Assembly (NCBI GenBank): GCA_964344415.1
Contig: CAYFMS010000002.1
Location: 142 to 64,141, forward strand
Direction: 5' to 3'
DNA length: 64,000 nucleotides
DNA from: an uncultured Gammaproteobacteria bacterium
GTDB lineage: Bacteria; Patescibacteriota; Patescibacteriia; UBA9934
Shown here one piece after another: positions 88 to 53,487 of this stretch. Made by a program: the position numbers and the translations under genes. Every line of letters starts with the position of its first letter. Position 1 is the first letter of the stretch. Under the pieces are notes generated by a model, which saw only the letters and a program-made list of their open reading frames with translations, was not told where the DNA came from and did no database searches.

Positions 88-411
88 TTACAGTGTCATA
101 TCACCGACAAAATCGATCAGCCTCCTCATCCCGTGAGGATTTGCATCCAATGTCTCGAGAATTGTCCGCAAGGGGGTGCCGCTTCCATGGTCATCCATCA
201 GGGCAAAGTGACCCCAGATGAAGAATCCAACGATGCGATCCTCTTCGGGATGCATGAGAAGGCCGACGGTATGTCCGATGTCCACATGTACTGCGTCGAC
301 ATCTTCTCCGACATGGAGCAGGCGACCAAGTTCATCGACGCGAGTGTGTGGTTCGAATGGCTTCTCCGCGGGCTTGGTCAGCCAAGCGGGGAGTTGAAAG
401 TCCGCATTCAT
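88..411 (-). CDS. hypothetical protein encoded in a GC-rich segment (strand assignment uncertain; overlapping + strand ORF 133..444 is the alternative)
   Basis: Minus-strand ATG at 409-411 preceded by AAGGAGAG RBS 5 nt upstream; stop at 88-90 followed by hairpin+T-run (31..59) on minus strand. However third-codon GC bias favours the + strand ORF 133..444 (GTG start, no RBS). Local GC clearly above window average. Confidence 0.35.
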   Translation of the reverse strand: MNADFQLPAWLTKPAEKPFEPHTRVDELGRLLHVGEDVDAVHVDIGHTVGLLMHPEEDRIVGFFIWGHFALMDDHGSGTPLRTILETLDANPHGMRRLIDFVGDMTL

Positions 412-471: not shown

Positions 472-837
472 TTAGATGAATATATCGCGCGGTATTGTTT
501 TCCTGCCAATGTTTTGCAGGAGTCCATTCACGCCAGGGTCGTCTTGTTTTGCGACGGAGAGTACCAATCCGCGAACAGGCACCCGAGCCGTATGCCCTGG
601 TAGTGCTTCCGCAGATGCGCGTGCTCGCATGATGAGCGCGCCAACGAATTTCCCATCTTGCTCACTTGTGAGTATGCTGAGCAGCTTGTTTACACGCTTT
701 GCGTAATAGTCTGATTCCGCAATGCGATAGATCAGCATATCTGCTTTGGGTATGTAGAAGGAATAATCAAAGGACACACTGGCTTCGGTACCTCGCAAAA
801 TATCCCTTACGCTCCTCGAGGACCTGATATTCGACAT
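472..837 (-). CDS. hypothetical protein (121 aa)
   Basis: ORF with GGAGGA RBS directly upstream of ATG (rc of catggttcctcc at 835-846); stop overlapped by hairpin aaccggtaaaccggtt plus T-run on minus strand. Confidence 0.5.
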   Translation of the reverse strand: MSNIRSSRSVRDILRGTEASVSFDYSFYIPKADMLIYRIAESDYYAKRVNKLLSILTSEQDGKFVGALIMRARASAEALPGHTARVPVRGLVLSVAKQDDPGVNGLLQNIGRKTIPRDIFI

Positions 838-6224: not shown

Positions 6225-6862
6225 AATTCTGTGGAGAGAAGATTGTCGAGAAGTGTCCGTAAATCATTCTCACTGACGGCTCCGGTAAGACGCTCGGTAT
6301 TTACGAAGATTGTTGGTGCGGTTGTTAGACTTAGGTCTTCAGCTTCTTGTGCAGAATCATGAACGACGCCAGCCATCTTTTCGCCAGAAAGGCAGCGATT
6401 AAATTTTGGTAGATTGAGGTCAATCATCTCCGCAATGTCGGTGTATGCCTGACCACCAAGCTCAATTCTGTGTTCATGCAAAATATCATGATATTCCCAG
6501 AAATAACCTTGATTGCCAGCACATTGCGCAGCGATAGCGGCATTCGTTGATTCGGGATTAAGTGAATCATTCGGAAAATCTTTCCAGACAATGGTGATAT
6601 TGTAATCGAGTGCGAGGCGCTGCATGATATGAGACATTTCTTTGCAACTTGGGCAGGTGAAATTGCTATAGAGAACTAAAACAGCATCGGGGCTTATACT
6701 GCCAATGAAAGGGTCGGTTGATCGAATGGTCGGTGACGTGGGTGTATTTAAATCAGTAAAAACAACGCTCCCGCGATCGAAAAGATGAAATGTAATGAAT
6801 CCTAAGATAATAATGACAAGCAAAATGGCTGGCAAAATAATGGCATGTGCTGTCAATTTCAT
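6221..6862 (-). CDS. thioredoxin-fold thiol:disulfide oxidoreductase (DsbA-like), membrane anchored
   Basis: 213 aa; N-terminal TM anchor; CPSC active-site motif (FTCPSCKEM); operonic with Cys-rich protein. Confidence 0.65.
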   Translation of the reverse strand: MKLTAHAIILPAILLVIIILGFITFHLFDRGSVVFTDLNTPTSPTIRSTDPFIGSISPDAVLVLYSNFTCPSCKEMSHIMQRLALDYNITIVWKDFPNDSLNPESTNAAIAAQCAGNQGYFWEYHDILHEHRIELGGQAYTDIAEMIDLNLPKFNRCLSGEKMAGVVHDSAQEAEDLSLTTAPTIFVNTERLTGAVSENDLRTLLDNLLSTEL

Positions 6863-6863
6863 A

Positions 6864-8087
6864 TTAGCGGAGTCTTATGGAATTTAATCGGTCAAATTCG
6901 TCTGTGAAATAGAGTGTGCTTTGATCAGCAGAAACGCTGAGGTCTTCGGCAATAATGTCGGTACTAGGTACGGCGAGGAGTTTTGATTGTCCGGTTGTGA
7001 CATTGATTTCGTATATGTCATCAGGTGCCGTGCTGAATTCATGCGAGTATCCAGTAAATGGTTCAATTTCGCGCGGAACAGCGCAAATGAGGAAGGTGTC
7101 ATCACGGAATGTACATTTCTCAATCCATGTCGGTACATTTAAATTACGTCGTTCAGCACCAATCTCATCCCCGGAAGCCTTCACATACCAAATACTTGGC
7201 CTTTCTTGATTGCTAGGATTTGATGTTGAATACGCAAGATGATTGCCGGTTGGCGACCATTTTGCAGAGAAATTTGTTCCATCAATAATGATGCTTCCTG
7301 GAGCATCTCCGTTCTGATCAATAAGAAGAACGGCATTCCGACCGAATCCAGCCTGAGCTTGCCCTGTTTGTGATAGACCGAGAAATTGATTATTTGGTGA
7401 CCAAAGGATGTCGAGCTTATGTTCATTTGATCCCAGTTCTGCAACGGCTTGTGCTTGAGTCCCATCTGTACTCATGACGACGAGTTGCCCATTATTGGCA
7501 TCAGCGATTGCCTTGCCGGCTAATGCGTCTCCATGCGGTGAAAAACCAAAGTCCTCCCAATGTGAAGGCATGGTTATTTGTTTATTCTGTTCGATATCGA
7601 AAAGAATATTGCTTCCATCTGGAAATTCCAGAATGGCCGCATCAGCATCTGGATTAAAAATAACTTCATCCGCACCAACGAATGCGGTATTTGAAATGGC
7701 AACAACACGCCCCTGTGCATCGATTTGATAAAACTGCCCATCATTTGGGTCATAATAGGCAATGTCATTTCCTGAAGATGAAGCTCCGGTAATTGCACTT
7801 GTTGTGAGCCTCGTTACAACTGTTTCGCCGCCGCGAGCAATGGGGGAAATAGGGAGTCCTGTTACCTCATCGATAATCTCTTCCTCTTCTTCGATGCGAT
7901 CCCCAACAAAGACATCCGAAGGAGAAATGACACCAGTTGCTATGTCTTCAGGAATATCGGTAATTGGTACTTCGGGTTTGCGACCGAAGAAAATCAAATA
8001 GAGAATAAGTCCAAGAAAAACAACGGATGCGGCGAATCCGGTGACTTGTAATGCAAATTTTAGGCGAGGATTCATCATATCAACCAA
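6864..8087 (-). CDS. membrane-anchored PD40/TolB-like beta-propeller protein
   Basis: 407 aa; N-terminal TM; repeated WSPxxxxLAxS motifs (WSPNNQFLGLS, WSPTGNHLAYST) typical of PD40 repeats. Confidence 0.5.
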   Translation of the reverse strand: MVDMMNPRLKFALQVTGFAASVVFLGLILYLIFFGRKPEVPITDIPEDIATGVISPSDVFVGDRIEEEEEIIDEVTGLPISPIARGGETVVTRLTTSAITGASSSGNDIAYYDPNDGQFYQIDAQGRVVAISNTAFVGADEVIFNPDADAAILEFPDGSNILFDIEQNKQITMPSHWEDFGFSPHGDALAGKAIADANNGQLVVMSTDGTQAQAVAELGSNEHKLDILWSPNNQFLGLSQTGQAQAGFGRNAVLLIDQNGDAPGSIIIDGTNFSAKWSPTGNHLAYSTSNPSNQERPSIWYVKASGDEIGAERRNLNVPTWIEKCTFRDDTFLICAVPREIEPFTGYSHEFSTAPDDIYEINVTTGQSKLLAVPSTDIIAEDLSVSADQSTLYFTDEFDRLNSIRLR

Positions 8088-8865: not shown

Positions 8866-11280
8866 TTACCCTGTGACTCGAATGACGATATCTCCATCCT
8901 GAATATCAGCATGGACGGTTCGTGCATTTTTACATGACAAAAGTTGTTCTGCGATTGGTATCTCTATTTTATTCTCAATCATGCGTGAAATGTCGCGGGC
9001 ACCGTATTGTTTGCGAATATCTTTGGCGAGCTTTTGCGGTACATTGGATCCGGCACTAAAATCGAGCCCCAGATTCATGAGTCTATTCGCGAGTTCTGAA
9101 ATCTGCTTTTTAATAATGCGTTTTACATGATGATCTGTCAGCGGTTTGAAGAGACCAAGGTAATTCATTCTACCCAGAAACTCGGCCGAAAAATGCGATC
9201 GTAATTCTTTTTCAAATGCTTCATCTTTATCCGAATTCTTTGTGAATCCAAGACCGTCACTATTTGCAATGCGCGATCCGGTATTTGATGTAAAAACAAA
9301 TACAGCATTTTTTGCATTGATTGTTCTTCCTGTTGAATCGGTTGCGACACCGGAATCGAGTATTTGAAGTAAGGCATGCTGCACATGCGGATGAGCTTTT
9401 TCGATCTCGTCAAAAAGAATAAGAGAGTGTGGATGTTGTTTTAAGTGATCCGTGAGTTTCGCACTTTCGCGATAACCGACATATCCCGCTGGCGCCCCAA
9501 AAAGACTGGAAACAGTAAAACTTGATGCATATTCGCCCATATCAAGTCTTAAGATAGGCGTATTCTTGAACAGATGCTCAGCTATTTTCTCTGCAAGAGA
9601 TGTTTTTCCGCTTCCGCTTGGTCCTGCAAAGAAAAATGATGCAAGCGGACCGCGATGCTTACCGAGCCCAATCACACTTCGAACAAGAGATCGCGACACC
9701 TGATCAATGATATGATCTTGGCCAATAATATCTTTTTTGAGTGTACGTCGTAGTTTTGATAACTGCTTTGATTTCGATTTTGGCTGCACATTCATGCCCG
9801 TCATCTGCTCAATGACATGCAAAATCTCTTTCTCATCTATAACAGTTTGCTTCGCCTTACTCTCTTTTTTCAATTTCTTTAATGCACGCTTGATTTCATC
9901 TTCACGTTTTTTACATTCCTTTGCTTTGTCATACTGTTCATCGCGAGCGAATGATTCTTTTTTCTTCTTTATATCCCGAAGCTCCTTATGTAATTTTTCC
10001 TTATTTGCCAACGTTTTCGTCTTTTTCGGGCGGAATGTTGAACCGGCTTCGTCAAGAATATCTATCGCTTTATCAGGGAAGTGCCGATCAAGCATGTACT
10101 TAGAAGCACCTTTTACAGTCGACAGTATGGCTTGATCGCTATACCGCACATTATGATGTTCTTCATAATATGGAATGATGCCGCGTAGTATCTGGAGCGT
10201 TTTCTCTTCATCAGGCTCATGAACGCGAATCGACTGAAAGCGTCGCTCAATCGCATTATCCTTTTCGATATGCTTTTTATATTCACTGAGTGTAGTTGCC
10301 CCGATGCATCGAATAGTACCCCTTGCAAGTGCGGGCTTTAAAATATTTGCAGCATCAAGAGATCCGCCGGCACTTCCGGCCCCCATAATGGTATGAACTT
10401 CATCAATGAAAAGAATAATATTTCCGCATTCCTCAATTTCTTCGATGAGTTGCCGTAAGCGAGATTCGAATTCTCCTCGATACATTGTTCCAGCAAGCAC
10501 GGCAGATAGGCTGAGTGAATGCAGTTTCATTCCCTTCAAATGAACCGGAACATCACAGTCCGCAATGCGTTTTGCAAGTCCTTCGACAATAGCTGTTTTT
10601 CCAACACCAGGATGACCGATGAGAATGGGATTATTTTTACTCCGTCTACCCAATATGGTCATCATGCGACTGATTTCTTTCTCTCTGCCAAAAACCGTAT
10701 CAATATTTTTTGAGTATTCATGATGCGTGAGCTCATCCGTAAAATAATCAAGAGCCGGGTACGCTGGCGTTTTCTCGTCTTTTTGCGCAGGACTCGTTGT
10801 TAAAATCCCGTCTCCAATTTGAGGGACTGAGAAGGGAAAATCAGAACTCACCTTGAATGTTGTTTGTAGTGATTCATCAAGAAAGGCGATATCAATATCA
10901 AAATCAGAAAAATAGCTCATGACCTCATCTGATTTCATTTGAAGTAGCGCATAAAGTAAATGCTCGGTCCCGATGAATCTATGTTCATATAAATTGGCGA
11001 CGGCTACCGCTTTTTCTATCATGACTTTTGCATCATTCGATAGGGTAGGGAGAGCCTCTTTTTTCTGCTGTTTCATTGATGTGCAGGCAATGAAAATACT
11101 TTCCGCATCTGCTCCAGATTTACTGAGTACATCAGCGGCAAGCGATCCTTGCTGACTTGATAGAGCCCATAAAATGTGAATAGGGTCCACGGTTTCATGA
11201 TGCTGTTCAACAACAAATGTGAGCGCACGTGCGAGGACGCTTTTTAAATGATCGGTGAATTTTGAAATGATATCTTGCAT
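8866..11280 (-). CDS. clpC: ATP-dependent Clp protease ATP-binding subunit (ClpC-type, two AAA+ modules)
   Basis: Clp N-domain repeats, Walker A GHPGVGKTA and GPSGSGKT, charged coiled-coil linker, sensor motifs. Start chosen at internal ATG (M12 of the 815-aa ORF) so that it does not overlap htpX. Confidence 0.85.
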   Translation of the reverse strand: MQDIISKFTDHLKSVLARALTFVVEQHHETVDPIHILWALSSQQGSLAADVLSKSGADAESIFIACTSMKQQKKEALPTLSNDAKVMIEKAVAVANLYEHRFIGTEHLLYALLQMKSDEVMSYFSDFDIDIAFLDESLQTTFKVSSDFPFSVPQIGDGILTTSPAQKDEKTPAYPALDYFTDELTHHEYSKNIDTVFGREKEISRMMTILGRRSKNNPILIGHPGVGKTAIVEGLAKRIADCDVPVHLKGMKLHSLSLSAVLAGTMYRGEFESRLRQLIEEIEECGNIILFIDEVHTIMGAGSAGGSLDAANILKPALARGTIRCIGATTLSEYKKHIEKDNAIERRFQSIRVHEPDEEKTLQILRGIIPYYEEHHNVRYSDQAILSTVKGASKYMLDRHFPDKAIDILDEAGSTFRPKKTKTLANKEKLHKELRDIKKKKESFARDEQYDKAKECKKREDEIKRALKKLKKESKAKQTVIDEKEILHVIEQMTGMNVQPKSKSKQLSKLRRTLKKDIIGQDHIIDQVSRSLVRSVIGLGKHRGPLASFFFAGPSGSGKTSLAEKIAEHLFKNTPILRLDMGEYASSFTVSSLFGAPAGYVGYRESAKLTDHLKQHPHSLILFDEIEKAHPHVQHALLQILDSGVATDSTGRTINAKNAVFVFTSNTGSRIANSDGLGFTKNSDKDEAFEKELRSHFSAEFLGRMNYLGLFKPLTDHHVKRIIKKQISELANRLMNLGLDFSAGSNVPQKLAKDIRKQYGARDISRMIENKIEIPIAEQLLSCKNARTVHADIQDGDIVIRVTG

Positions 11281-16553: not shown

Positions 16554-16925
16554 ATGGGAACGCAATCACACAAAGACCTTATTGTATGGCAAAAGGCTAT
16601 GAATCTTGTCGAGTTGATTTACCGGATTACGAGTGAATTTCCTCGCTCGGAGCAATTCGGCCTAGGGTCACAAATGACAAAATCAGCAATATCTATACCT
16701 TCAAATATTGCTGAAGGACGGAGGCGCTCCTCGAGGAAAGATTATGCAAGATTTGTGAATACTGCATTTGCATCAGCGGCCGAACTGGAAACACAAGTAG
16801 AAATAGCTAGACGTATTGGTTACATAAATGAAATCCAGTTCGAAATGACGAATCAACTTATCGAAGAGGTGCTAAAAATATTGAATGTTATGAATCAGAA
16901 GCTTCGGCTACCAGCCACAAGCTAA
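16554..16925 (+). CDS. four helix bundle protein (23S rRNA intervening-sequence protein family, TIGR02436-like)
   Basis: 123 aa; characteristic DLIVWQKAMNLV...IPSNIAEG...SAAELETQVEIA pattern; flanked by inverted repeats (16542-16553, 16941-16952). Confidence 0.8.
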   Translation: MGTQSHKDLIVWQKAMNLVELIYRITSEFPRSEQFGLGSQMTKSAISIPSNIAEGRRRSSRKDYARFVNTAFASAAELETQVEIARRIGYINEIQFEMTNQLIEEVLKILNVMNQKLRLPATS

Positions 16926-16965: not shown

Positions 16966-19341
16966 ATGAATATACTTGCGAGCTACAATTGGATTAAGGA
17001 ATATTTGAAAACGGATCAGTCGGTTGAAACATTTGCTTCTGAAATGAGTTTGAAATCCATGTCCGTGGAAGAGATTATTGATTTGAAGAAAAAATTTGAT
17101 GGAATGGTCATTGGTTTTGTGGATGAGATAAAAGATCATCCAAATGCCGACAAACTCAAAATCGCTGTAACAAATATCGGAGATAAACAAGTGGACATTG
17201 TTTGTGGTGGTATGAACCTGAAACAAGGGCAGCGTGTTGTAGTTACGCTTCCTGGGTCAAAAGTTCGTTGGCACGGGGAAGGTGACCTTATTGAATTGAA
17301 AGAAACAGAAATCCGCGGTGCAAAAAGTTATGGAATGATCTGTGCGGGTGCGGAGGTTGGTTTTGAAAAAGCGCATACGGGAGAAAAAGATATTTGGGAT
17401 TTGACTGATATCACAGATGCCGAGCCAGGAACTCCATTTTCAAAAGCATTCGATATGGAGGATTATTTGATGGACATCGAGGTAACAACGAATCGATCAG
17501 ATAGCATGAATATTATTGGGCTTGCGCGTGAAGCGGGAGTTGCTACCGATGGAGAATTTGTTCATGAACCAAATAAGCTTCCAGCTGGAGGCACTGGGAA
17601 AGATTTGAAAGTGGATATTCAGGAAAAGGATCTCTGCCCGCGATATATGGCGGTTGTCATTGATGGAATAAAGGTTGGTCCATCGCCGGCATGGCTTCAG
17701 AGGAAAATTCTTCTATCCGGACATCGGCCGATCAATAATATTGTCGATATTACAAATTTGATTTTGCATGAGTATGGGCAGCCGCTTCATGCATTTGATT
17801 ATGACAAATTAAAAGATGGAACGATTATTGTGCGTCGCGCAAATGACGGTGAGAAATTTGTGGCACTTGATGAAAAAGAATATGAGCTTGCATCCTCGAA
17901 TTTGGTTATTGCAGATGCCGAGAAATCAGTAGCCCTCGCGGGAATTATGGGAGGACTTGATTCTGGTACATGGAATGAAACGACGACTATTGTGTTCGAG
18001 GCGGCCACATTCGATGCATTGACAACACGAAAAACAGCAAGATCTCTCAATCTTTATTCGGATTCTCAATCAATGTTCGAGAAGGGGCTTTCAACCGAGT
18101 CTCCAGAATCAGCTCTGGCTCGCGCGGTGGAGTTAACACTTGAAATAGCTGGAGGGCAGGTTGCGAGTCAGGTGATCGATATTCGGAAAGAAGAGTATCA
18201 GCCACTACATTTCCCAATCAATCATGACCATATGCGTCGTATTATCGGTGTTGATATTCCGGATGAAGATCAAATCGATATTCTGAAAAAGCTTGGCTTC
18301 ACTGTGAGCGGCGGGGAAGTCACGGTTCCGTATTGGCGAGATCATGACATTGAGCATAGCGTCGATTTTGCAGAGGAAATTGCGCGCATGTATGGATATC
18401 ACAATATTCCATCGAAGCTTCCGTCCGGCCAATTATCCTTGCAGCAAAAAGATCAGAATTTGAAATGGGAGGGTTGGATGAAGCGACAATTGCAGGCCGC
18501 GGGATATACGGAATTTTTCAGCTACTCATTTATTGGTGAGGATGAATTCCGCAAATATGATTTAGATACGGACGATGCAGTGAAGATTTATAATCCGTTA
18601 TCGAGTGATTTGACGCATATGCGAACATCGCTTATGCCGTCGCTCCTTTCGAGTATTGCACAGAATCAGAAGCATACGCCTGCCGGTAGGGTTTTTGAAA
18701 TCGCAAGGATTTATGAGGCGGTTTCTGGCAATTTACCAAATGAGTTAACGCATGTCGTTATTGCAAAATTTGGACCAGGTAATTCCCTTGATGATTTTCG
18801 AGAACTGAAAGGCATTGTCGATATGTTGAATCGGGATACGGGCCTTGCGCTCACATTGCACCGAATTAACGATGACCCTTATTGGCATGCATCGCGCAGT
18901 GCAGAAATAAAACATGATGGGCGGCGTATTGGTGTTATCGGGCAAGTCGCGGATGAATATCAAAAACAATTCGGCATTGATTATCCTGTGATGGTTTTAC
19001 AGATGGATCTCGAGGCAATTATACCGTCTATGGTTGAAACGCGTTATTATGAAGTGCTGCCTGAGTACCCAGCCGTACGTCGTGATATTGCTCTACTCGT
19101 CGATAAAACGGCTGAGTTCGAATCGGTGAAAAATCTATTCAAGGCAGAGTCTACACTTCTTGAATCAGTTGATCTTGTAGAGATTTATGAAGGGAAGGGA
19201 ATAGAAAATGGTAAGAAGAGCATGACGCTTGGATTGAAGCTCCGTTCGGCAGATAAGACGCTTGCATCTGAAGAAGTCGACGCTGAAATGAAAAAGTTTG
19301 AATCAGTGGCAACGGAAAAGCTCGGAGCGGAGGTGCGATAG
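16966..19341 (+). CDS. pheT: phenylalanine--tRNA ligase beta subunit
   Basis: 791 aa; tRNA-binding N-domain, B3/B4, B5 and FDX-ACB-like C-terminus; immediately after pheS apart from the insertion. Confidence 0.9.
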   Translation: MNILASYNWIKEYLKTDQSVETFASEMSLKSMSVEEIIDLKKKFDGMVIGFVDEIKDHPNADKLKIAVTNIGDKQVDIVCGGMNLKQGQRVVVTLPGSKVRWHGEGDLIELKETEIRGAKSYGMICAGAEVGFEKAHTGEKDIWDLTDITDAEPGTPFSKAFDMEDYLMDIEVTTNRSDSMNIIGLAREAGVATDGEFVHEPNKLPAGGTGKDLKVDIQEKDLCPRYMAVVIDGIKVGPSPAWLQRKILLSGHRPINNIVDITNLILHEYGQPLHAFDYDKLKDGTIIVRRANDGEKFVALDEKEYELASSNLVIADAEKSVALAGIMGGLDSGTWNETTTIVFEAATFDALTTRKTARSLNLYSDSQSMFEKGLSTESPESALARAVELTLEIAGGQVASQVIDIRKEEYQPLHFPINHDHMRRIIGVDIPDEDQIDILKKLGFTVSGGEVTVPYWRDHDIEHSVDFAEEIARMYGYHNIPSKLPSGQLSLQQKDQNLKWEGWMKRQLQAAGYTEFFSYSFIGEDEFRKYDLDTDDAVKIYNPLSSDLTHMRTSLMPSLLSSIAQNQKHTPAGRVFEIARIYEAVSGNLPNELTHVVIAKFGPGNSLDDFRELKGIVDMLNRDTGLALTLHRINDDPYWHASRSAEIKHDGRRIGVIGQVADEYQKQFGIDYPVMVLQMDLEAIIPSMVETRYYEVLPEYPAVRRDIALLVDKTAEFESVKNLFKAESTLLESVDLVEIYEGKGIENGKKSMTLGLKLRSADKTLASEEVDAEMKKFESVATEKLGAEVR

Positions 19342-19394: not shown

Positions 19395-19673
19395 ATGATC
19401 GAAGCAAAAGAAATTTTATTTATTGTGCTTGCGTTCTGTGCGCTGTGGGTTACATTATTTTTCTGCTGGTTTGTGTATCAAATTGCAAGAGCGATTCGAC
19501 AGGTAAATACGGTGCTGAGCGAGGTGCGCGACCATTTAGCAAGGCTGGAAGAGACAATAACAGGCTTTCGCGGTCGATTCGGTGATGGAGCAACAAATCT
19601 TGGGAAAATGGCGGTGCATATAAAACATTTCATAGATGGATGGAAGGGGAGTAAGAAGAATGGGCAAGAATAG
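19395..19673 (+). CDS. small membrane protein (DUF948-like topology: N-terminal TM plus coiled coil)
   Basis: 92 aa; single N-terminal TM LFIVLAFCALWVTLFFCWFV. Confidence 0.4.
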   Translation: MIEAKEILFIVLAFCALWVTLFFCWFVYQIARAIRQVNTVLSEVRDHLARLEETITGFRGRFGDGATNLGKMAVHIKHFIDGWKGSKKNGQE

Positions 19674-19894
19674 TTGCTCATTTTTTCTATTTTGCGCTAT
19701 TCTGGATTTAGGAGGTGAATAATGACCCCGCTTCACTTGCGCCGGAATGCGCGGCGCACTTGGAAAAAAGTGTCGCCTTTTGTGGTGACGGCAGCATGCA
19801 TTGCCCTCGTGCTTGTCCCGGCCATCAGCCGGTCCCTATTCGTCGATGTCGACTATTCATGAGATATGTTTCGAGACCGGCGATTTTTATTTCA

Positions 19895-19920
19895 TCAAAA
19901 AAAGCGCAGTTTTGCGCTTT
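19895..19920 (-). terminator. rho-independent terminator after the MOSC gene
   Basis: aaagcgcagttttgcgcttt hairpin with T7 on the minus strand. Confidence 0.6.
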
Positions 19921-19945
19921 ACGGAAATTGTATTGGTGCCTTCAT

Positions 19946-20497
19946 TTACTCGAAGACGGGTCGGAATGATGGTTTGCGTGGTGGTTTGGGGATCTCAATT
20001 CCGACACGGAGCATCCCGCTCGTCATCACTTCAGCGATCAGGCCACCGCGCCCCATCATGACCTTGCCGAAATCTGGCAAATCATGTTGGCCGGTGCGCC
20101 CAAGGTTCGAGGGGCGTGCGCAAGGGTCGCAATATGCAACGCCACGGAATTGAACGTCACCGATGACGAAGGGACGGCCAAGAAGCCACATCAGATCAAC
20201 TCCCTCCGTGACAAGATTTCGCCTGGAAAACTCAGCGGGGTAATTCACCGCCGCCAAATCCTCCGCACTGATCAGTGTCACCTGTCGTCGTCCGGGCTTT
20301 TCTTTGTTGACATAGCTCCCAGTGCCAATTGCGTATCGGTCATTTTGCAAACCAGCACCAGCAATTGCCAGCACTTCATGCTGACTAATCATGGGTTCTC
20401 CGGCCCCTGGACTCGTATAGATTTTTTTAAGTCTACCAATCATCGTTGTTACCTCCGCTGCCGTTATATTACATTTATTCCACATAGGCAAATCCAT
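19946..20497 (-). CDS. MOSC domain-containing protein (YiiM-like)
   Basis: 183 aa; MOSC hallmarks GLQNDRY, RQVTLISAEDL, NLVTEGVDL, conserved Cys in GVAYCDPCARP; lies in a GC-rich island; GGAGGT RBS; own terminator 19895-19920. Confidence 0.65.
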   Translation of the reverse strand: MDLPMWNKCNITAAEVTTMIGRLKKIYTSPGAGEPMISQHEVLAIAGAGLQNDRYAIGTGSYVNKEKPGRRQVTLISAEDLAAVNYPAEFSRRNLVTEGVDLMWLLGRPFVIGDVQFRGVAYCDPCARPSNLGRTGQHDLPDFGKVMMGRGGLIAEVMTSGMLRVGIEIPKPPRKPSFRPVFE

Positions 20498-20523
20498 CGT
20501 ATATGCTAATATGATTTCGATAT

Positions 20524-23500
20524 TTGACTATGAACCCTCAGGATTTTGTACATCTCCATGTGCATTCCCATTTTTCACTTCTGGAAGCTCTGCCATCGCC
20601 AAAGGCATTGATTGCAAGGGCGAAAGAGCAGGGAATGAACGCCATCGCCATGACAGATAATGGGGCTCTTTATGGTGCGGTGAGTTTTTATCAGGCGGCG
20701 CAGGCCGAGGGGATAAAACCAATTATCGGGCTCGATGCTTTTATCGCTCAGAATCGTATGACGGATAAGCGAGCTCGAATTGACGATCGCCCGTATCGAT
20801 TAACGCTACTTGCTTTAAATGAAGCGGGCTATAAGAATTTGATGAAAATTACGACGGCGGGATTCTTGGAGGGCTTCTACTACAAGCCAAGGGTTGATCA
20901 TGAATTTCTTGCTGAACACTGCGAGGGGCTTGTGGCTCTTTCAGGGGGGCTTCGCGGCGAAATACCTAGCTATCTTGCTGAAGACAATGACACGAAAGCG
21001 GAAGAAATTGCCTTGAAGTATCGGGACATGTTTGGTGAGGAGAATTTTTATCTCGAAATCATCCATCATCCAGATTTTGGGCGCCAAATTGACATCAATA
21101 ATAAGGTGATCGAGTTGTCAAAAAAGACAGGCATTCCTCTTGTTGCTACTCGAAATATTTTTTACTTAAATCCTGAAGAGCGGGATGGGTATGAAGCGCA
21201 GCTCTGTATTCAACGCGGAAGAACGCTCGAAAATTTTCGTCAAACCAATACGCAGGATGTTGATTTATCCTTTGGCGAGCTTGAGAGCATTTTTGAATAT
21301 TTTAAAGACCAGCCAGAGGCGCTTGAAAACACCCGCCGCATTGCCGATCGTGTGAATTTTGAAATGGATTTAGGGAATGCGTATTTGCCTATTTTTCCAA
21401 TGCCGGAAGGGAAGACAGATGATGACTATCTCTATGAATTGACGCTTGAAGGGCTTAAGAATCGCTATGGAGATGAATTGAGCACTGAAGTAAAGGAGCG
21501 ATTTGAATTTGAATTTTCCGTGATTAAGAAAATGGGATATTCGTCCTATTTCATTATCGTCCAAGATTTTGTGAATTTTGCGAAAGAACGTGGGATTTTG
21601 GTGGGACCTGGCCGAGGTTCGGCCGCCGGATCGATTATTTCCTATGCTCTGAAAATTACGGATATCGACCCACTTGAATATGGACTTCTTTTCGAGAGAT
21701 TTCTTAATCCGGACCGTATCTCGATGCCTGATGTCGACATGGACTTCGCCGATTCCCGCCGCGGAGAAGTCTTGGAATATGTAAAAGAAAAATACGGTGA
21801 GGATAAAGTGGCTGGAATTATTACATTTGGAACCATGAAGCCAAAGGCTGCCGTGCGTGATGCTGCGCGTGTGCTTGGCTTGTCATTTGCGGAAGCGGAC
21901 TTGATTGCAAAAGCGGTGCCGGATCCCGTTCTTGGTCGTCACACCCCGCTCAAAATTGCGATTGATAAGGCTCCAGATTTGCGAGATCTTTATCATGGAA
22001 ATTCCATGGCTCGTGATGTGATCGATCTTGCGATGAAAATCGAGGGAAATCCGCGCCACTCATCCCAACATGCCTGCGGTTTTGTGATTGGTGATGTTCC
22101 GCTTATCGAACGCAGTCCAATTCAAGCGGGTCAGCGTGAGGATACGGCTTATGTCACGCAGTATTCGCTTAACTCTGCCGAATCGGTTGGATTGGTAAAA
22201 ATGGACTTTCTTGGACTTTCAAACCTTACGATTATTCAAGATGCTCTTGAAATCATTGATGCAGTTCATAATGTAAAAGTTGACATCGAGCATGTGCCAC
22301 TTGATGACAAAAAAACATTTGAATTACTTGGTCGTGGTGATACAACAGGTGTCTTTCAGCTGGAATCCGATGGAATGAAGCGATACATTAAGGAACTCAA
22401 GCCCTCGCATATTGAAGATATTATTGCGATGGTGTCGCTATACCGTCCTGGACCATTGTCGGCCGGGATGGTGCCGCAATATATCAATCGAAAGCATGGG
22501 CGTGAAAAGGTTCGATATGACCATCCGATGATGAAGGAAATTCTCGAGGAGACATATGGTGTGACAGTGTATCAGGAGCAAATCATGAAAATTTCCCGCA
22601 AATTGGCCGGGTTTACGGCTGGTCAAGCAGATACACTTCGAAAGGCGATGGGGAAGAAAAAGCATGAGGTTCTTGAAAAAATGTACGGCGATTTTGCAAG
22701 TGGTTGCGAGGGGAATGGCGTGCCAAAAAAGACGGCCGAAAAGATTTGGAATGACTGGAAGGGATTTGCCGATTATGCTTTTAATAAATCTCATGCGGCT
22801 TGTTATGCAATGATTGCGTATCGGACGGCGTACTTGAAGGCGCATTATCCAGCTGAATTCATGGCGGCGCTTATGAATTCGGACATGAATACGATTGACC
22901 GTATTACAATCGAGGTCGAGGAAGCAAAGCAAATGGGAATTGAGGTGTTACCACCGGATGTAAATGAATCATTCCCCGGTTTTGCAGTTGTGCCAGAAAC
23001 GGAAAATATTCGCTGGGGATTGGGAGCGGTGAAGAATTTTGGTTATGAGGCAGCGCGAATGCTTCGTGAAGAGCGCAAAGAAAATGGCCCCTTCGAAGAT
23101 CTTGCTGATTTTCTAACAAGGCTCGACACAAAGGTCGTCAATAAGAAGAATTTAGATGCACTTATAAAATCAGGCGCCTTGGATCGCTTTTCGGATCGAT
23201 CAACACTTATTGCAAATATGGACCAACTTTTGCAATTCAATAAGCAGGTTCGTAAGGATCAGGAGCAAAATCAGGTTTCACTATTTGATCTTTCGCCGAA
23301 TATGGCGACGTTTACACTTAAATTGCGAAAGGCAAAGGAATTGTCGCTTAGTGATTTGCTTGCCTGGGAGCGTGAATTACTCGGGCTATATGTATCCTCT
23401 CATCCGGGTGATTTATTTACAGATGAGATGAAAAAACGCGTCGCAACATCAGAAAGTCTGGAGAAATGTGAAGAAGGAGCCATTGTGAAAATGATTGGGG

Positions 23501-24045
23501 TCATTAGCGATGTGAAGCGCATTCTTACCAAAAAGGACCAAAAACCAATGGCATTTGTAAAAATTGAGGACTGGACAGGCGCTACTGAGGTGGTTGTATT
23601 TCCAAAAACGTATGCAAAATACAATCTAAAATTAGAAGTTAATCAATATGTCGCTTTGCAGGGGAAGGTGAGTATTCGCGAGCGAGGGGATGGAAATGAA
23701 TGGTCACTGCTTCTTGATTCACTTATTCCATTTGAAGATTCAGATATCGATAAAGTCGAACAGATGCTTATGAGCGGAGCGTGGATTGAGGATGGATTCA
23801 AAGAAGAAGAGGTCGAGGATTTTTCAGATTTTGGTATAAAAATAACTGTTCCAGAGCAACCAACACAAAAAATGATCACAGATTTGCGTGAGTTATTTCA
23901 ATCCGCCCCAGGGAGAGAGCCTGTGTATCTGATTGTTGAATCTGGAGGCAGAAAGCGACGCGTCACAACAGAATTCAGCATTGAGCGCAGTCAGGGAATC
24001 ATTCAAAAAATTGCCAATATTGTCGGGCAAGAAAATGTCGCCTAA
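20524..24045 (+). CDS. dnaE: DNA polymerase III alpha subunit
   Basis: 1173 aa; N-terminal PHP domain (HLHVHSHFSLLEA), polymerase core, OB-fold region. Confidence 0.92.
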   Translation: MTMNPQDFVHLHVHSHFSLLEALPSPKALIARAKEQGMNAIAMTDNGALYGAVSFYQAAQAEGIKPIIGLDAFIAQNRMTDKRARIDDRPYRLTLLALNEAGYKNLMKITTAGFLEGFYYKPRVDHEFLAEHCEGLVALSGGLRGEIPSYLAEDNDTKAEEIALKYRDMFGEENFYLEIIHHPDFGRQIDINNKVIELSKKTGIPLVATRNIFYLNPEERDGYEAQLCIQRGRTLENFRQTNTQDVDLSFGELESIFEYFKDQPEALENTRRIADRVNFEMDLGNAYLPIFPMPEGKTDDDYLYELTLEGLKNRYGDELSTEVKERFEFEFSVIKKMGYSSYFIIVQDFVNFAKERGILVGPGRGSAAGSIISYALKITDIDPLEYGLLFERFLNPDRISMPDVDMDFADSRRGEVLEYVKEKYGEDKVAGIITFGTMKPKAAVRDAARVLGLSFAEADLIAKAVPDPVLGRHTPLKIAIDKAPDLRDLYHGNSMARDVIDLAMKIEGNPRHSSQHACGFVIGDVPLIERSPIQAGQREDTAYVTQYSLNSAESVGLVKMDFLGLSNLTIIQDALEIIDAVHNVKVDIEHVPLDDKKTFELLGRGDTTGVFQLESDGMKRYIKELKPSHIEDIIAMVSLYRPGPLSAGMVPQYINRKHGREKVRYDHPMMKEILEETYGVTVYQEQIMKISRKLAGFTAGQADTLRKAMGKKKHEVLEKMYGDFASGCEGNGVPKKTAEKIWNDWKGFADYAFNKSHAACYAMIAYRTAYLKAHYPAEFMAALMNSDMNTIDRITIEVEEAKQMGIEVLPPDVNESFPGFAVVPETENIRWGLGAVKNFGYEAARMLREERKENGPFEDLADFLTRLDTKVVNKKNLDALIKSGALDRFSDRSTLIANMDQLLQFNKQVRKDQEQNQVSLFDLSPNMATFTLKLRKAKELSLSDLLAWERELLGLYVSSHPGDLFTDEMKKRVATSESLEKCEEGAIVKMIGVISDVKRILTKKDQKPMAFVKIEDWTGATEVVVFPKTYAKYNLKLEVNQYVALQGKVSIRERGDGNEWSLLLDSLIPFEDSDIDKVEQMLMSGAWIEDGFKEEEVEDFSDFGIKITVPEQPTQKMITDLRELFQSAPGREPVYLIVESGGRKRRVTTEFSIERSQGIIQKIANIVGQENVA

Positions 24046-25305: not shown

Positions 25306-25578
25306 TTATTCGGGGCGATTGAGAGCAGGGCGACGTACTTGGGCCCCTTGCGCGCGGTTGTCGAATTCCTGAAGCTCAGCTTCCTCGATGCGATAAACAG
25401 CATCGAGATGCTTTTCTCGCAGTAGTCGAATCAACCGGATAATCATTTCATCCGGTAATTGCTCCAGAAGCTTCATTTCGAACTCAGAAAGAATATTTTC
25501 TACGGCCGGAACGCCGATGGAAAGAGCGTCCGGATTGAGCCATCTTCCAAGTCTCGTAACATATTTTCGCTTTGCCAC
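25306..25578 (-). CDS. small hypothetical protein, paralog A of a tandem pair (possible HTH)
   Basis: Start placed at GTG preceded by AAAGGAG 5 nt upstream (within the 129-aa ORF); about 90 aa; paralogous to 25671..25916. Confidence 0.4.
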   Translation of the reverse strand: MAKRKYVTRLGRWLNPDALSIGVPAVENILSEFEMKLLEQLPDEMIIRLIRLLREKHLDAVYRIEEAELQEFDNRAQGAQVRRPALNRPE

Positions 25579-25670
25579 CACATCTCCTTTTCTGCAATGG
25601 TTGGCGTTAATATACATAGCAAATATATGTATGTAAAGAAAAATGCTGCTCGGCGACATGACGGTGACGG

Positions 25671-25916
25671 TCATGGCTTTGCAGCTCGATTGCACGCAAC
25701 GTTCCCATTACTGGGATGGATGATGCGGCAAATGGCACGATGTTTGAGCACCGATGCCTTCAGGAGTTCGAGAATGACGTCCTCATCCAGTTCCATCAAC
25801 TGATGAAGTGTTCGATCGCTCAGCAAACATTCGCTATTGGCGAGTCCAACAATGAGCGAGCTGGAATTGAGGCAATTCCCCAGGAGGCGAATGCGGCCAG
25901 CATGTTTCTTATTCAT
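25671..25916 (-). CDS. small hypothetical protein, paralog B of a tandem pair (possible HTH)
   Basis: 81 aa from internal ATG preceded by AAGGAGG 5 nt upstream; shares the pattern LSxxxxxxLxELxDExIxxLL with paralog A. Confidence 0.45.
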   Translation of the reverse strand: MNKKHAGRIRLLGNCLNSSSLIVGLANSECLLSDRTLHQLMELDEDVILELLKASVLKHRAICRIIHPSNGNVACNRAAKP

Positions 25917-26240
25917 GATTCCTCCTTTGTGTAGGTCTTCATTCAGCGTAGCAACTTGCAGAAAAATGGTCAAAACTTGCGAAATAAAACATATTTTGTA
26001 CAATGATTTCATCACGACGATGGGGAGTAACGAACCCTTGAGTGCCGTGCCAAGCGGATCTTGGCAGAATTGAGTGATGCTATTTAGAGAAAAGAATGGC
26101 ATAACTCGGGTGGAACCGTCGAGCCAAGCTCGATCCCGAGATAATCTCGCATAAAGATGCGGGACTAATCTCGGTTTTTTGTTTAACGGAAAGTTCAACA
26201 TGTTGAAATGTTGAATCACTCGCTACGCTCACTTGTTCAT

Positions 26241-26597
26241 ATGAGATTCAATTATGAGAATTTAACAGTCGTTCAAGAGATTCGTAGTTTAATCCGTCTG
26301 GTATACGAACTTACGAAAATACTTCCATATGATGAGCGCAGAAATCTAAAAAGTCAGCTCCAACGTTCCGCGACGTCAGTACTACTAAACATTGCGGAAG
26401 GCAGTTCTCGGCAGAGCAGAAAGGAGTTCGCGCGGTTTATCAATATAAGTATTGGATCACTTGTGGAAGTGGACGCCATACTGAATATTATGGAAGATGT
26501 GAAGTACTTATCTCCCGACGCTCGTTCGCAAATTGATCCCCTGATACAGTCCATATACTTTAAACTTGTAGCACTAAGAAAATCTCAAACACATTAA
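26241..26597 (+). CDS. four helix bundle protein (second copy)
   Basis: Pattern NLTVVQEIRSLIRLVYELTKILPYDERRNLKSQLQRSATSVLLNIAEGSSRQSRKEFARF matches the family. The ORF begins at 26208, but ATG 26241 gives a family-typical N-terminus. Confidence 0.7.
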   Translation: MRFNYENLTVVQEIRSLIRLVYELTKILPYDERRNLKSQLQRSATSVLLNIAEGSSRQSRKEFARFINISIGSLVEVDAILNIMEDVKYLSPDARSQIDPLIQSIYFKLVALRKSQTH

Positions 26598-33644: not shown

Positions 33645-35537
33645 TTGCCCAGAGTGGATTCTTCGCATAAGGTGATCGCGTGGCAGGGAGGGATGCGAAC
33701 CATGCTTGCGCATATGAATAAACTCCCAACAGAATTTACACAAAGCCTTTGTCATGTTTTTCAGGACAAAGAATCAGGCGAATTATATGTCGCCATAGGT
33801 GACGGTCGGCAATTGCCGTATCGTCAATTTATACAGGATAGCGTTTTTCAAATGGCGCGGTCCTATTTTTTGTCTCCAACGAGCAATATTACAGCGGTCA
33901 ATCCTCGTAAGCTTGCTGGACTTATTGGAGCGATGCTTGCTCGCCAATCTCGTGCGCCAGGAACGGTGATCGAAGTTCTTGTAAATGAATTCTTAGTTAC
34001 AGATCCTGATGAGGCTGCGGAATTGGGTGTGAATGTAGGTGATCTAAGAGAAGGGAAGCTCGACGCGCTCATTGAACGTATTCTGATTCAATACGGCGAT
34101 GATTCGGTTCAGGAGCTTGAATTTTCAACGGTTCTGTTCAACTCGGTTTCAAATCTTGCTGCGAAAGCGATTGAGGATAGGCGTCTCGGTGCCTTTATTG
34201 AACAATCAAGTCGCTACGTCTATTACAATCAAAAAGATCCGATCACGGATAGCTGGTATTATTATCGGCCAGAAGAAATACTGAATTCACATTTGAAGGA
34301 TCGGTACATTGAAGTCATGGATGCATGCTTTGAATTGTATGCAAAGCTCGCGGATCAGCTTGAAACACATTATCGAAATATCAAGCCACTCGAGTCATGT
34401 GAATATGCGATTAAGCCAAATGACAAGAAAAAATACCGCTTCAATGAATTAGACAATCCAAAGCAGAAACGATTATTTAAACGCACATACGGTTTTGATA
34501 TTCGGACAAAGGCGGCTGACACATCAAGAATTATGCTTCCTGCGGGGACACTTACGAGTCTTGCAATGGTGGCAAATGGCCGAACCTTCGAGCATCTTTT
34601 AAAGCGGCTCTATTCATCTCCATACGGTGAATTCAAGGATATTGCTCGCAAAGGGCATGAAACGCTCAACAAAGTCATTCCAAAATATGTGAAGCGGGCG
34701 AATCCGGAGGGAGAGAAATTCTGGATGCAGGTTGATGATGATATTCGAAATGATTTGCGAGAAGCCATTCCTGCGGCTATGAGTTTTGATGGTGATGATA
34801 CGGAAGTGAAATTGCTCGATGTGCCTCGATTGATGTCGAGTGACCCAGATGCGCGCATTCACTATCTTGCGGCGGCGTATTTCCCATATGCTCGAACGGA
34901 TTATGGGCGTATTGTGAATGAATTGCGAGCATTGCCAGCAGAGCGAGTTGCGGAATTATTTAGACATGCTATTGGCGCCCGTGAAACGCGGCGTGATCGG
35001 TCTCCTCGAGGATTCGAGCATGGGTATGATATTACGGCGGAAATTGTAGGGGACTTTGGAATTTTCCGAGATTTGCATCGCCATCGCATGTGTACACTTC
35101 AGTGGCAGCGTCCAAATCCGCATCTAGGATTTATTATCCCTCAGGATATTGTCGATATCGGTCTTGCTGATGAATGTCGAGCAGTTGAGCAGCAGGTGAG
35201 GGCGCTTTATGATGATATTTCTTCAAGCCTTGATCCGTATTTGGCCGAATATGTGACATTATTTGGTCACAAAATTCGTTTTACAATTGGTATGAATTTA
35301 CGTGAATCGCAGCATTTGCTCGAGCTTCGAACCGTGAAGCAGGGACATCCGAATTATCGGCGTGTTTGTCAGAAGATTCACAACGAAATGAGGCGTCGCG
35401 CTCCGTGGATTGATGAATGTGATGTGCTGAAATTCGTGGATCATAACAGTTACAGTTGGGCCCGCGCTGATGCGGAAGCTCGGCAAAGTCAAAAAATGAT
35501 TGAGCGCAAGATCGATGATGAAATGATTAATGAATAA
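33645..35537 (+). CDS. ThyX-like protein, long form with two ThyX-like halves (putative flavin-dependent thymidylate synthase)
   Basis: 630 aa. First half carries DRRLGAFIEQSSRYV, resembling the ThyX RHRxxSxxxxSQRY signature. Second half carries LHRHRMCTLQWQ (RHR motif). Embedded between dut/tmk and dcd. Confidence 0.45.
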   Translation: MPRVDSSHKVIAWQGGMRTMLAHMNKLPTEFTQSLCHVFQDKESGELYVAIGDGRQLPYRQFIQDSVFQMARSYFLSPTSNITAVNPRKLAGLIGAMLARQSRAPGTVIEVLVNEFLVTDPDEAAELGVNVGDLREGKLDALIERILIQYGDDSVQELEFSTVLFNSVSNLAAKAIEDRRLGAFIEQSSRYVYYNQKDPITDSWYYYRPEEILNSHLKDRYIEVMDACFELYAKLADQLETHYRNIKPLESCEYAIKPNDKKKYRFNELDNPKQKRLFKRTYGFDIRTKAADTSRIMLPAGTLTSLAMVANGRTFEHLLKRLYSSPYGEFKDIARKGHETLNKVIPKYVKRANPEGEKFWMQVDDDIRNDLREAIPAAMSFDGDDTEVKLLDVPRLMSSDPDARIHYLAAAYFPYARTDYGRIVNELRALPAERVAELFRHAIGARETRRDRSPRGFEHGYDITAEIVGDFGIFRDLHRHRMCTLQWQRPNPHLGFIIPQDIVDIGLADECRAVEQQVRALYDDISSSLDPYLAEYVTLFGHKIRFTIGMNLRESQHLLELRTVKQGHPNYRRVCQKIHNEMRRRAPWIDECDVLKFVDHNSYSWARADAEARQSQKMIERKIDDEMINE

Positions 35538-35735: not shown

Positions 35736-36224
35736 ATGACGACCAACATTGTCACCGACGAGCAGCTGGGCGTTCTCGCCCGGCGTCAACATGATCTTTC
35801 AGGTCGATTCATCGACTGCGACGCGCAGCCTTTCGTCCCGGACGGTTGGAGTGTGGAAGAGCATCGCAAGGGCGGGCTGCTAGAGTTCGATCCTGCAAAG
35901 ATCGAACTCTACCTCGACCGCCGGCAGAAGAGTGGTAAGATCGTCGGCCATTATTTCCGGCAGAAGCTGGTAGATAAGCCTGTGCTCAACGCATGCGTGC
36001 TCGACCACCTGCTCGCCAACACGGCTCTCATCCCAGGGGATTGGAAGCGTGATGAACAGGGCAGGACACGCTATATTTACTTCTGGGGAACGGTTTACCG
36101 CGACTCGATTGCCTATCAGCGCGTGCGTTACCTCTGCTGGAGCGGCGGGCGGTGGCAATGGCGCTCCGGCGAGCTCGACCGCGGCTGGCACGATCGGGGT
36201 CCGGCTGCGATTCTAGCGAGTTAA
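35736..36224 (+). CDS. hypothetical protein encoded by a GC-rich island
   Basis: 162 aa; AAGGAG RBS 8 nt upstream; strong 14-bp hairpin plus T6 terminator at 36294-36335; markedly higher GC than its neighbours. Confidence 0.45.
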   Translation: MTTNIVTDEQLGVLARRQHDLSGRFIDCDAQPFVPDGWSVEEHRKGGLLEFDPAKIELYLDRRQKSGKIVGHYFRQKLVDKPVLNACVLDHLLANTALIPGDWKRDEQGRTRYIYFWGTVYRDSIAYQRVRYLCWSGGRWQWRSGELDRGWHDRGPAAILAS

Positions 36225-47124: not shown

Positions 47125-47448
47125 ATGAAGGATGTCTTTTGGCTTATCTTGCTACATGTCATTGGATTCGTGGGATTCGTGCTTGCGATCACGATGGCAT
47201 ATGAAGCGCATCGTAGAGATCAGTTCATGACCGTCGTAGCTTTACTCGCGGTCGCACTGATTTTGCATGTGGCTTCAGGGGAGCTCTTTCACAGGATGAG
47301 GCAGAATGTGAGGCTTGTGCTGCGTTCTAAGAAACGGGAGAAGGGAGTGTTGTATTTGCAGGAAACTCCAATAGAAAAAGAGGGCAGGGTGCTTGCATTC
47401 AGGCAGAATGACACTATGTCGGATGGTTCAGGCGATGACGCCGCGTAA
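47125..47448 (+). CDS. small hypothetical membrane protein
   Basis: ATG with GAAGGAGG RBS 6 nt upstream; two TM helices. Confidence 0.4.
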   Translation: MKDVFWLILLHVIGFVGFVLAITMAYEAHRRDQFMTVVALLAVALILHVASGELFHRMRQNVRLVLRSKKREKGVLYLQETPIEKEGRVLAFRQNDTMSDGSGDDAA

Positions 47449-53217: not shown

Positions 53218-53487
53218 TGCCTCTCCGTGTGCAGCGCCGCAGAGTGGGTCTGCGGCTTTGCCATGGAGATGTATCCAAGTTTACGCTTGGTTATCTCCGT
53301 CATTTTAAATCTCAGTGCGAACTTAAAGGTCGAGGCTTTTTCTTTAAAAGGGGCGTCTACCTAACGGCATTTTGCAGACCAAATGTATCTGGAAAAGTAC
53401 CATTAGGCAGACGCCCTACACGTTATGCGTGTGAAGAATAAGTCGTTTGCGCTTTTACTCTTAACTATAAGAAAGGATAAATCATTT
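53218..53487 (+). promoter_or_regulatory. long structured 5' leader of the giant surface-protein gene
   Basis: 270-nt ORF-free region with nested stems (ggagatgtatccaag...cttggttatctcc; 14-bp stem gggcgtctacctaa...ttaggcagacgccc). Confidence 0.5.

Follow-up and report, generated by a model that had tools for sequence, protein, structure and literature searches.

A MOSC-domain gene and a candidate membrane-peptide gene in a high-turnover slot between pheT and dnaE of an Uhrbacteria-like bacterium

The canonical MOSC domain is a beta-barrel joined to an N-terminal helix bundle, and it carries an invariant reactive cysteine (PMC5818509). This absolutely conserved residue lies in the C-terminal third and is C119/C120 in YiiM, which alone possesses a C-terminal three-helix bundle that helps form a proposed cavity for the molybdenum cofactor (Moco); YuaD lacks the bundle and has an elongated beta3-beta4 loop that is said to replace it (PMC5818509). 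YiiM, with structures from E. coli (1O65, 1O67, 5YHI) and G. stearothermophilus (5YHH), is a Moco-dependent 6-hydroxylaminopurine resistance protein. Reductases of the mARC1/YcbX type, such as human mARC1 (6FW2), have an extra N-terminal beta-barrel, MOSC_N, plus a ferredoxin domain in YcbX, while Bacillus subtilis YuaD (1ORU) is itself uncharacterised. Here we describe a stand-alone minimal MOSC-domain protein of 165 amino acids (aa), encoded at 19946..20443 on the minus strand of a 64-kb stretch of a 768-kb metagenomic contig (CAYFMS010000002.1); this whole stretch of 64,000 nucleotides is called the window below. Its PheT has homologues at 50-61% identity that carry the names Candidatus Uhrbacteria or Patescibacteria, and the source genome is, as judged from sequence, that of an Uhrbacteria-like bacterium of the Candidate Phyla Radiation (CPR) with a small genome. 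The gene lies between pheT and dnaE in a stretch rich in guanine plus cytosine (GC), to which an earlier note, made from the DNA sequence alone, had drawn attention. In our reading, ~19,700-20,450 would be an accessory insert of two convergent genes, one for the MOSC protein and one for a candidate membrane peptide (ORF46), which was probably gained laterally within the CPR gene pool into a hot-spot slot; the gain is not demonstrably recent.

The window protein resembles the described systems in fold far more than in sequence. It matches Pfam PF03473 (31.3 bits, cutoff 22.7), with residues 71-169 of the longest possible reading frame (183 aa) corresponding to positions 10-119 of the 120 in the model, and its AlphaFold2 (AF2) model (predicted local distance difference test 87, predicted template-modelling score 0.84) has the MOSC beta-barrel and an N-terminal helical bundle, so the earlier assignment to the MOSC domain holds. 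The top 13 Foldseek matches were all MOSC proteins, with YuaD (1ORU), YiiM (1O65, 1O67, 5YHI, 5YHH) and mARC1 (6FW2) at probability 1.0, and pyruvate-kinase barrels appeared only at E > 0.2. YuaD is the best structural match (E 2.4e-6, template-modelling (TM) score 0.70) and is likewise a single domain of similar size, with barrel and N-terminal bundle and no YiiM-type C-terminal bundle, but the identity is 19% and the likeness is undetectable by sequence or profile search. YiiM has the same fold (TM 0.58-0.65), belongs to the same Pfam MOSC family and has its invariant cysteine at a similar place in the C-terminal part, whereas it is 14-19% identical, has ~224 residues instead of 165 and carries the three-helix bundle that the window protein lacks. 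The latter ends ~20 residues past the last barrel strand, with no C-terminal helices in the model, and its longer subfamily relatives have no PF03475-type domain. To mARC1 the likeness is one of the MOSC catalytic domain by fold (E 3e-4; query-normalised TM 0.43); compared with mARC1/YcbX, the window protein is a single bare domain, and no gene nearby encodes an electron-transfer partner. Because it consists of the canonical domain only, without the YiiM C-terminal bundle, we consider it YuaD-like and not YiiM-like, as it had been called before. An NCBIfam search gave no model match.

The start of the protein and its probable active site are both well marked. ATG 20443, which gives 165 residues, is preceded at 7 nt by the Shine-Dalgarno (SD) motif GGAGGT (20451..20456, minus strand), and 26 homologues start at the equivalent residue, so this is most likely the start codon. 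All of the 23 residues that are invariant in the subfamily are kept, among them C108 in the motif YCDPC; C108 is invariant in 27 of 27 aligned members, YCDPC is nearly so, and the residue is the second cysteine of a CxxC (C105-D-P-C108; window 20120-20131). From its place in the motif C108 would be equivalent to C120 of YiiM. By homology, the protein might bind Moco through C108 and reduce N-hydroxylated or N-oxygenated compounds, base analogues for example, and such detoxification would suit an organism presumably living on salvaged nucleobases. Two results count against this part of our reading: sequence and profile searches of the Protein Data Bank reached no solved MOSC protein, and hence no Moco-binding one, and there are no Moco-biosynthesis genes in the 64-kb window or in the homologue neighbourhoods listed. 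CPR bacteria generally lack cofactor biosynthesis. It is therefore conceivable, if doubtful, that a gene with the same history serves another, Moco-free chemistry, for example thiol/persulfide redox or sulfur or metal transfer through the CxxC, for which the near-invariance of YCDPC would also speak, as would a lead from alignment by eye, in which Asp106 appears to stand where YiiM has its phosphate-binding Ser118. However, the fold and the invariant cysteine match those of Moco-binding MOSC proteins (PMC5818509), Moco could be scavenged, and the search for Moco genes in the genome itself covered 64 of 768 kb.

One argument for a gain comes from the surroundings of the gene. Its slot has a different content in every relative examined and thus looks like a turnover hot spot. 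Relatives for the comparison were chosen as contigs encoding PheT homologues. Five of them, with 57-61% PheT identity, conserve the order ClpB-M48-LemA and PGM-RseP-pheS-(IVP)-pheT-orf92-X-dnaE, followed by a gene of ~385 aa and thrS, where the variable X is a 404-aa sigma-like gene, a pair of 135 aa and 111 aa, 689 bp without a gene, a gene of 96 aa or one of 109 aa. The left anchor of this block in the window is pheT, for the 791-aa beta subunit of phenylalanyl-tRNA synthetase (16966..19341, plus strand; Pfam domains; homologues 57-61% identical), and the right anchor is dnaE, for the alpha subunit of DNA polymerase III (20530..24045, plus strand; Pfam domains), which is syntenic in all relatives examined. 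Between pheT and the insert stands orf92 (19395..19673, plus strand), which encodes a conserved small membrane protein of 92 aa with no Pfam match and is 30-46% identical to genes of 84-116 aa after pheT in the relatives L015, L016, L099, L100 and L068. Because orf92 follows pheT in every relative, it is part of the conserved block and not of the island, and it forms the true left border of the slot, with a terminator-like hairpin and T-run at its end (19655..19686, plus strand; a pattern match from a consensus scan); the island does lie between pheT and dnaE, as first described, but not directly after pheT.

The MOSC gene is absent from the slot in all five of these nearer relatives, and tblastn searches of their variable slots with the MOSC protein and ORF46 found no remnants. 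A neighbour-joining PheT tree places the window among them, and just 19 of 100 bootstraps put it outside the clade that they form. The absence from all five argues for gain over simple vertical descent. Integration hot spots between conserved core genes are a general concept of bacterial genome plasticity, and the locus shares with it the conserved flanks (pheT-orf92 and dnaE), the contents that vary by relative and, in relatives, the presence of HicAB and IS1595; it differs in that the window has no integrase, tRNA, attachment repeat or insertion sequence (IS) element and the insert is smaller than 1 kb. More distant relatives carry mobile or selfish cargo just downstream of pheT: in L068 (46% identical in PheT and 45% in DnaE) a HicB/HicA-like toxin-antitoxin pair lies in the slot beside a MOSC gene (6551-6989), and in another (P0236) pheT is followed by genes for an IS1595 transposase and a Pif1-type helicase, with no dnaE within 8 kb. 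Gene turnover here is the norm for the lineage and not an oddity, contrary to the earlier suggestion that an acquisition would be unusual in a reduced genome.

The second line of evidence is composition. Mean GC in the window is 0.439 (standard deviation 0.026 among sliding 552-bp segments), and the 183-aa frame (19946-20497, minus strand), with a GC of 0.525, is equalled or exceeded by only 1.1% of the segments; the maximum over 300 bp here is 0.587. The GC-rich island between core genes that the earlier note reported is therefore real (0.525-0.543 against 0.439 for the MOSC frame, the top ~1%), and so are the overlapping shadow open reading frames (ORFs) it mentioned, of which several lie on the plus strand (19715-19969, 19801-20061, 19866-20153 and 20084-20509). 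It is not a single island, however: the 100-bp profile has two humps, at 19,700-19,860 and 19,950-20,350 (the second up to 0.62), the right one belonging to the MOSC gene and the left one to the separate ORF46 with its own AGGAGGT, and between them lies an AT-rich trough (GC 0.37) at the terminator. The flanking spacers have a GC of 0.33-0.39, as low as is usual for the host. When each gene was recoded under the codon usage of the core genes, so that the amino-acid and the synonymous share of its GC could be told apart, the 165-aa MOSC gene (observed 0.543) came to an expected 0.489 from its amino acids, against 0.438 +/- 0.014 for core genes, and had a further 5.4 GC points of synonymous excess (z 4.3; core spread 0.02 +/- 1.3), so that amino-acid composition and synonymous codons each account for half of the total excess. 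ORF46 behaves in the same way (synonymous z 4.2; GC 0.574-0.585; GC at third codon positions (GC3) 0.66), and both genes are atypical of the host in composition and codon usage. High expression was considered as a cause of the GC-rich codons and rejected, since the genes of the ribosomal proteins L1, L11 and L25 show no such excess (synonymous z 0.8, -0.1 and -1.9), and codon bias linked to expression is accordingly unlikely.

A contrast of this kind could also come from mis-assembly of the metagenome, that is, from a chimera with a higher-GC organism, for which the compositional contrast and nothing beyond it would speak. We consider this so improbable as to be negligible. The arrangement and its junctions are the same in three independently assembled contigs from three different runs of one project (0-14 mismatches per ~20 kb), the flanking spacers have the low GC of the host, and the agreement of three independent assemblies shows that the island is not an assembly chimera. 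Compared with an ENA contig, positions 9946-30497 of the window differ at 14 sites over 20.5 kb, and compared with a Logan contig at 4 over 15.6 kb, which suggests separate assembly or population-level variation.

ORF46 (19722..19862, plus strand; MTPLHLRRNARRTWKKVSPFVVTAACIALVLVPAISRSLFVDVDYS) fills the left hump and is preceded by the motif AGGAGGT (19711..19717, plus strand), read from the sequence and atypical for this genome. Its basic N-terminus and one hydrophobic helix make it a candidate single-pass membrane peptide of 46 aa. No homologue was found in any locus examined, and there was no Pfam or PHROG match; its status as a gene is putative, and the idea that it is a conserved partner of the MOSC protein was rejected, as no homologue of ORF46 stands beside other MOSC genes. 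The two genes converge upon a shared hairpin between them, AAAGCGCAAAACTGCGCTTT (19901..19920), whose T-run on the minus strand would make it the terminator of the MOSC gene, in agreement with the earlier note. A 20-nt imperfect direct repeat (75%; TTTTGCGCT...) at 19690-19709 and 19910-19929 brackets ORF46, its second copy overlapping the shared hairpin; it is probably due to chance, though it is the sole candidate for a junction repeat.

Translation signals also set the two genes apart from the host, independently of composition. The earlier note had taken the ribosome-binding site of the MOSC gene to be of the host type, which proved mistaken: a strong SD precedes the first start in only 2 of the 50 other ORFs of the window (>=120 aa), in 2 of 54 from four relatives (0/14, 1/14, 0/14 and 1/12) and in 0/5 of L068, while GGAGG stands at the optimal distance before each of the two genes of the island. 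L015, L016, L099 and L100 are as poor in SD motifs as the window. The host is essentially without Shine-Dalgarno motifs. Instead, a box resembling a -10 element (TAnnnT) ends 3-14 nt before the start codon in 19 of 42 core genes, where shuffled sequences gave 11.6 +/- 2.6, which suggests that many messenger RNAs in this CPR lineage are leaderless or have very short leaders. Examples of this pattern lie upstream of 19395, 12212, 43842 and 905.

All six GC-rich genes of the window, at 88-411 (minus), 472-837 (minus), 19722-19862 (plus), 19946-20443 (minus), 35736-36224 (plus) and 47125-47448 (plus), have a canonical SD (AAGGAG, GGAGG or AGGAGGT; spacing 5-8 nt), so that GC-richness and SD co-occur perfectly in this window. 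Apart from the Pfam match of the MOSC gene, none of the six has a Pfam match above threshold or any match in NCBIfam or PHROG. The most GC-rich of them, 35736-36224 between thyX and dcd (GC 0.60, GC3 0.69, synonymous z 8.8), belongs to a family of hypothetical proteins whose 379 homologues, named Uhrbacteria, Paceibacteria, Gribaldobacteria and Azambacteria, are 50-64% identical, and it is conserved on a par with PheT. The proposal that GC-richness with an SD proves import is weakened by this gene, which bears the same signature and is broadly conserved in CPR; perhaps the combination may mark a class of leadered genes. The product of 35736-36224 is N-terminally ~30 residues shorter than most of its homologues (162 against ~195 aa).

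The relatives of the MOSC protein itself give a picture of a large and scattered family. It belongs to a subfamily of stand-alone proteins of ~153 aa, common in CPR, with 137 matches in a k-mer search, at least 370 loci in JGI metagenomes and 1,648 representatives of 50% clusters in an exhaustive HMMER search; the few names among the homologues include Pacebacteria, Wolfebacteria and "bacterium". The neighbourhoods of the homologues are unrelated (RuvC/PBP; NYN; pyrF/resolvase; AAA_33/asparaginase), and longer members are fused to FGE-sulfatase or GrpB domains, which give no clear functional lead. Our literature searches found nothing on MOSC proteins in Patescibacteria or CPR. In 85% of 60 loci the gene exceeds its flanks in GC; at 15 low-GC loci amino acids contribute +3.0 points to the excess and synonymous codons +3.9, with ~0 for size-matched neighbours (p ~1e-4). 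The synonymous excess falls as the GC of the host rises (slope -0.12, p 0.01) and regresses toward a GC of ~0.55-0.6, which fits either frequent gene traffic or an intrinsic codon preference. A strong SD is somewhat commoner before MOSC homologues (loci L011-L098) than before their neighbours (10/40 against 30/277).

The window MOSC protein stands apart within this family. Its branch is long, with a leaf of 0.42 where the median is 0.18. To its nearest neighbour it is 54% identical, the median for the family being 73%, and the neighbour-joining tree places it, unstably, at the base of a low-GC CPR clade. The long branch, the modest Pfam score of 31 bits and a non-homologous C-terminal tail might suggest a decaying remnant of foreign DNA whose ORFs are free of selection and whose MOSC match is a relic. 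We hold this to be very improbable, for the ORF is intact and has both SD and terminator, all invariant residues of the subfamily are kept, the fold is predicted confidently and three samples yield one and the same protein sequence.

The main competitor to a lateral gain is a long residence in place: the common ancestor shared with L068 would already have had a MOSC gene between orf92 and dnaE, the gene would have descended vertically and been lost independently in the nearer relatives, and its GC-richness and SD, kept by selection, would belong to the gene itself and would not point to import. A number of results weigh against our reading, and several of them favour this one. In L068 the same slot also holds a MOSC gene, of like orientation and divergent from dnaE, which fits an old residence with later losses and goes part of the way toward what the earlier note had named as refuting its proposal, an orthologue at this position with similar GC in all relatives; the five nearer relatives lack the gene. 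The identity between the window and L068 is alike for MOSC (44%), PheT (46%) and DnaE (45%). The GC excess is family-wide, argues for a signal intrinsic to the gene and does not single out this event; the excess that a check of GC and codon usage brought out here is real, yet it is poor evidence of date, and since the subfamily is GC-richer in most low-GC CPR genomes, GC is no clock for this event and atypical composition has little diagnostic value for an island. GC-richness with an SD is likewise no proof of import, given the conserved family of 35736-36224. Even among 15 billion proteins the best homologue is 50-54% identical. Around the island, a repeat search gave only short, chance-level two-copy matches; integrase, tRNA and IS elements are lacking at the island, as is any convincing flanking repeat; and searches of viral contigs and PHROGs found no MOSC relatives on viral contigs and no PHROG match, which leaves a phage vector without support. 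Fast turnover of the slot would, in addition, make losses cheap.

We nevertheless think long residence unlikely, though it comes closest among the alternatives. The PheT tree would demand at least 2-3 independent losses. The window MOSC protein has no specific affinity to that of L068, which ranks 114th of 143 by identity, and the closest relatives of the L068 protein (68-71% identity) are found at other loci. ORF46, which lies outside the MOSC family, has the same anomalies. If insertion were random among a few dozen hot spots, about as many coincidences of slot would be expected as the one seen in ~40 informative loci. The lack of specific affinity, the mobility of the family and the anomalies of ORF46 all speak for gain. 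Lateral acquisition, as the earlier note proposed, is thus likely, whereas the word "recent" is not borne out: the nearest genomes stand at only ~60% PheT identity, and no donor can be identified because no homologue exceeds ~54% identity. Among 1.84 billion representatives nothing was more than 50% identical over the full length. A PheT search of genome contigs gave only 30-35% identical Firmicutes-type or distant matches and no close relative, and in the collections searched no genome was nearer than ~61% PheT identity.

On the reading that we prefer, an accessory gain from within the CPR, the donor would have been another CPR-type bacterium, probably of higher GC and SD-using, and the insert would have entered the high-turnover slot between orf92 and dnaE after the split from the sampled relatives. 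The MOSC gene is predicted to be monocistronic, with a short leader and a promoter of its own from which it would be transcribed divergently from dnaE, translated through its canonical SD and terminated at the shared hairpin. A candidate promoter (TTGCCT-17 nt-TATAAC, or TAATAT; 20463..20491, minus strand) was found by inspection within the 80-bp divergent spacer common with dnaE and was not reported by the consensus scan. A bolder proposal, to which we give rather little credence, is that the ~153-aa MOSC gene of CPR is a self-contained, horizontally circulating gene that brings its own SD, promoter and terminator, is GC-richer than its hosts, changes its locus from nearly every lineage to the next and works where Moco is not synthesised, with scavenged Moco or with a Moco-independent CxxC.

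The remainder of the window is largely that of an ordinary core genome, with genes for RecG, RadA, ClpB, PheST, DnaE, ThrS, MiaA, GatB, Tmk, ThyX, Dcd, L1, L11, NusG, GyrB, FtsW, L25 and RF1 among others, and a scan of the 64 kb gave no tRNA and no Rfam match. A second slot that varies among relatives lies between the ~385-aa gene after dnaE and thrS; it is filled by two hypothetical ORFs (25306-26219, minus strand) with a GC3 of ~0.50, synonymous z of 2.6-3.2 and no clear SD at the first start. Two PF05635 genes, for 23S-rRNA-intervening-sequence-protein or bAvd-like four-helix bundles, are inserted between core genes (16554-16925 and 26208-26597, both plus strand; 131 and 98 bits), one between pheS and pheT and the other before thrS, and the relative L015 has a PF05635-type gene (9599-9955) at the same position between pheS and pheT. 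A 1,401-aa ORF without a Pfam match (53425-57630, plus strand) is a compositional outlier in the direction opposite to the island, with the lowest GC3 of the window (0.307) and a synonymous z of -3.8. The thyX ORF (33645-35537, plus strand) is unusually long at 630 aa, its Thy1 domain is matched in two stretches (best 133-346), and ahead of an internal ATG, at codon 20, stands an SD-like GGGAGGG; the ORF might have arisen by fusion or duplication, or its start may be mis-called.

Taken alone, the presence of a small accessory gene in a variable slot of this uncultured bacterium is a routine finding. The case offers a worked example of how GC content alone over-calls recent horizontal gene transfer for this family, and it indicates that translation-initiation signals can be used as an independent marker of atypical genes, SD-led genes standing out from an SD-less, leaderless-like core. 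If the MOSC gene does circulate among CPR bacteria, the window would be one snapshot of that traffic, and imported genes would stand out by their translation signals. If a CPR MOSC protein is active without an endogenous Moco pathway, it would bear on cofactor supply or nucleobase detoxification in reduced, probably symbiotic organisms.

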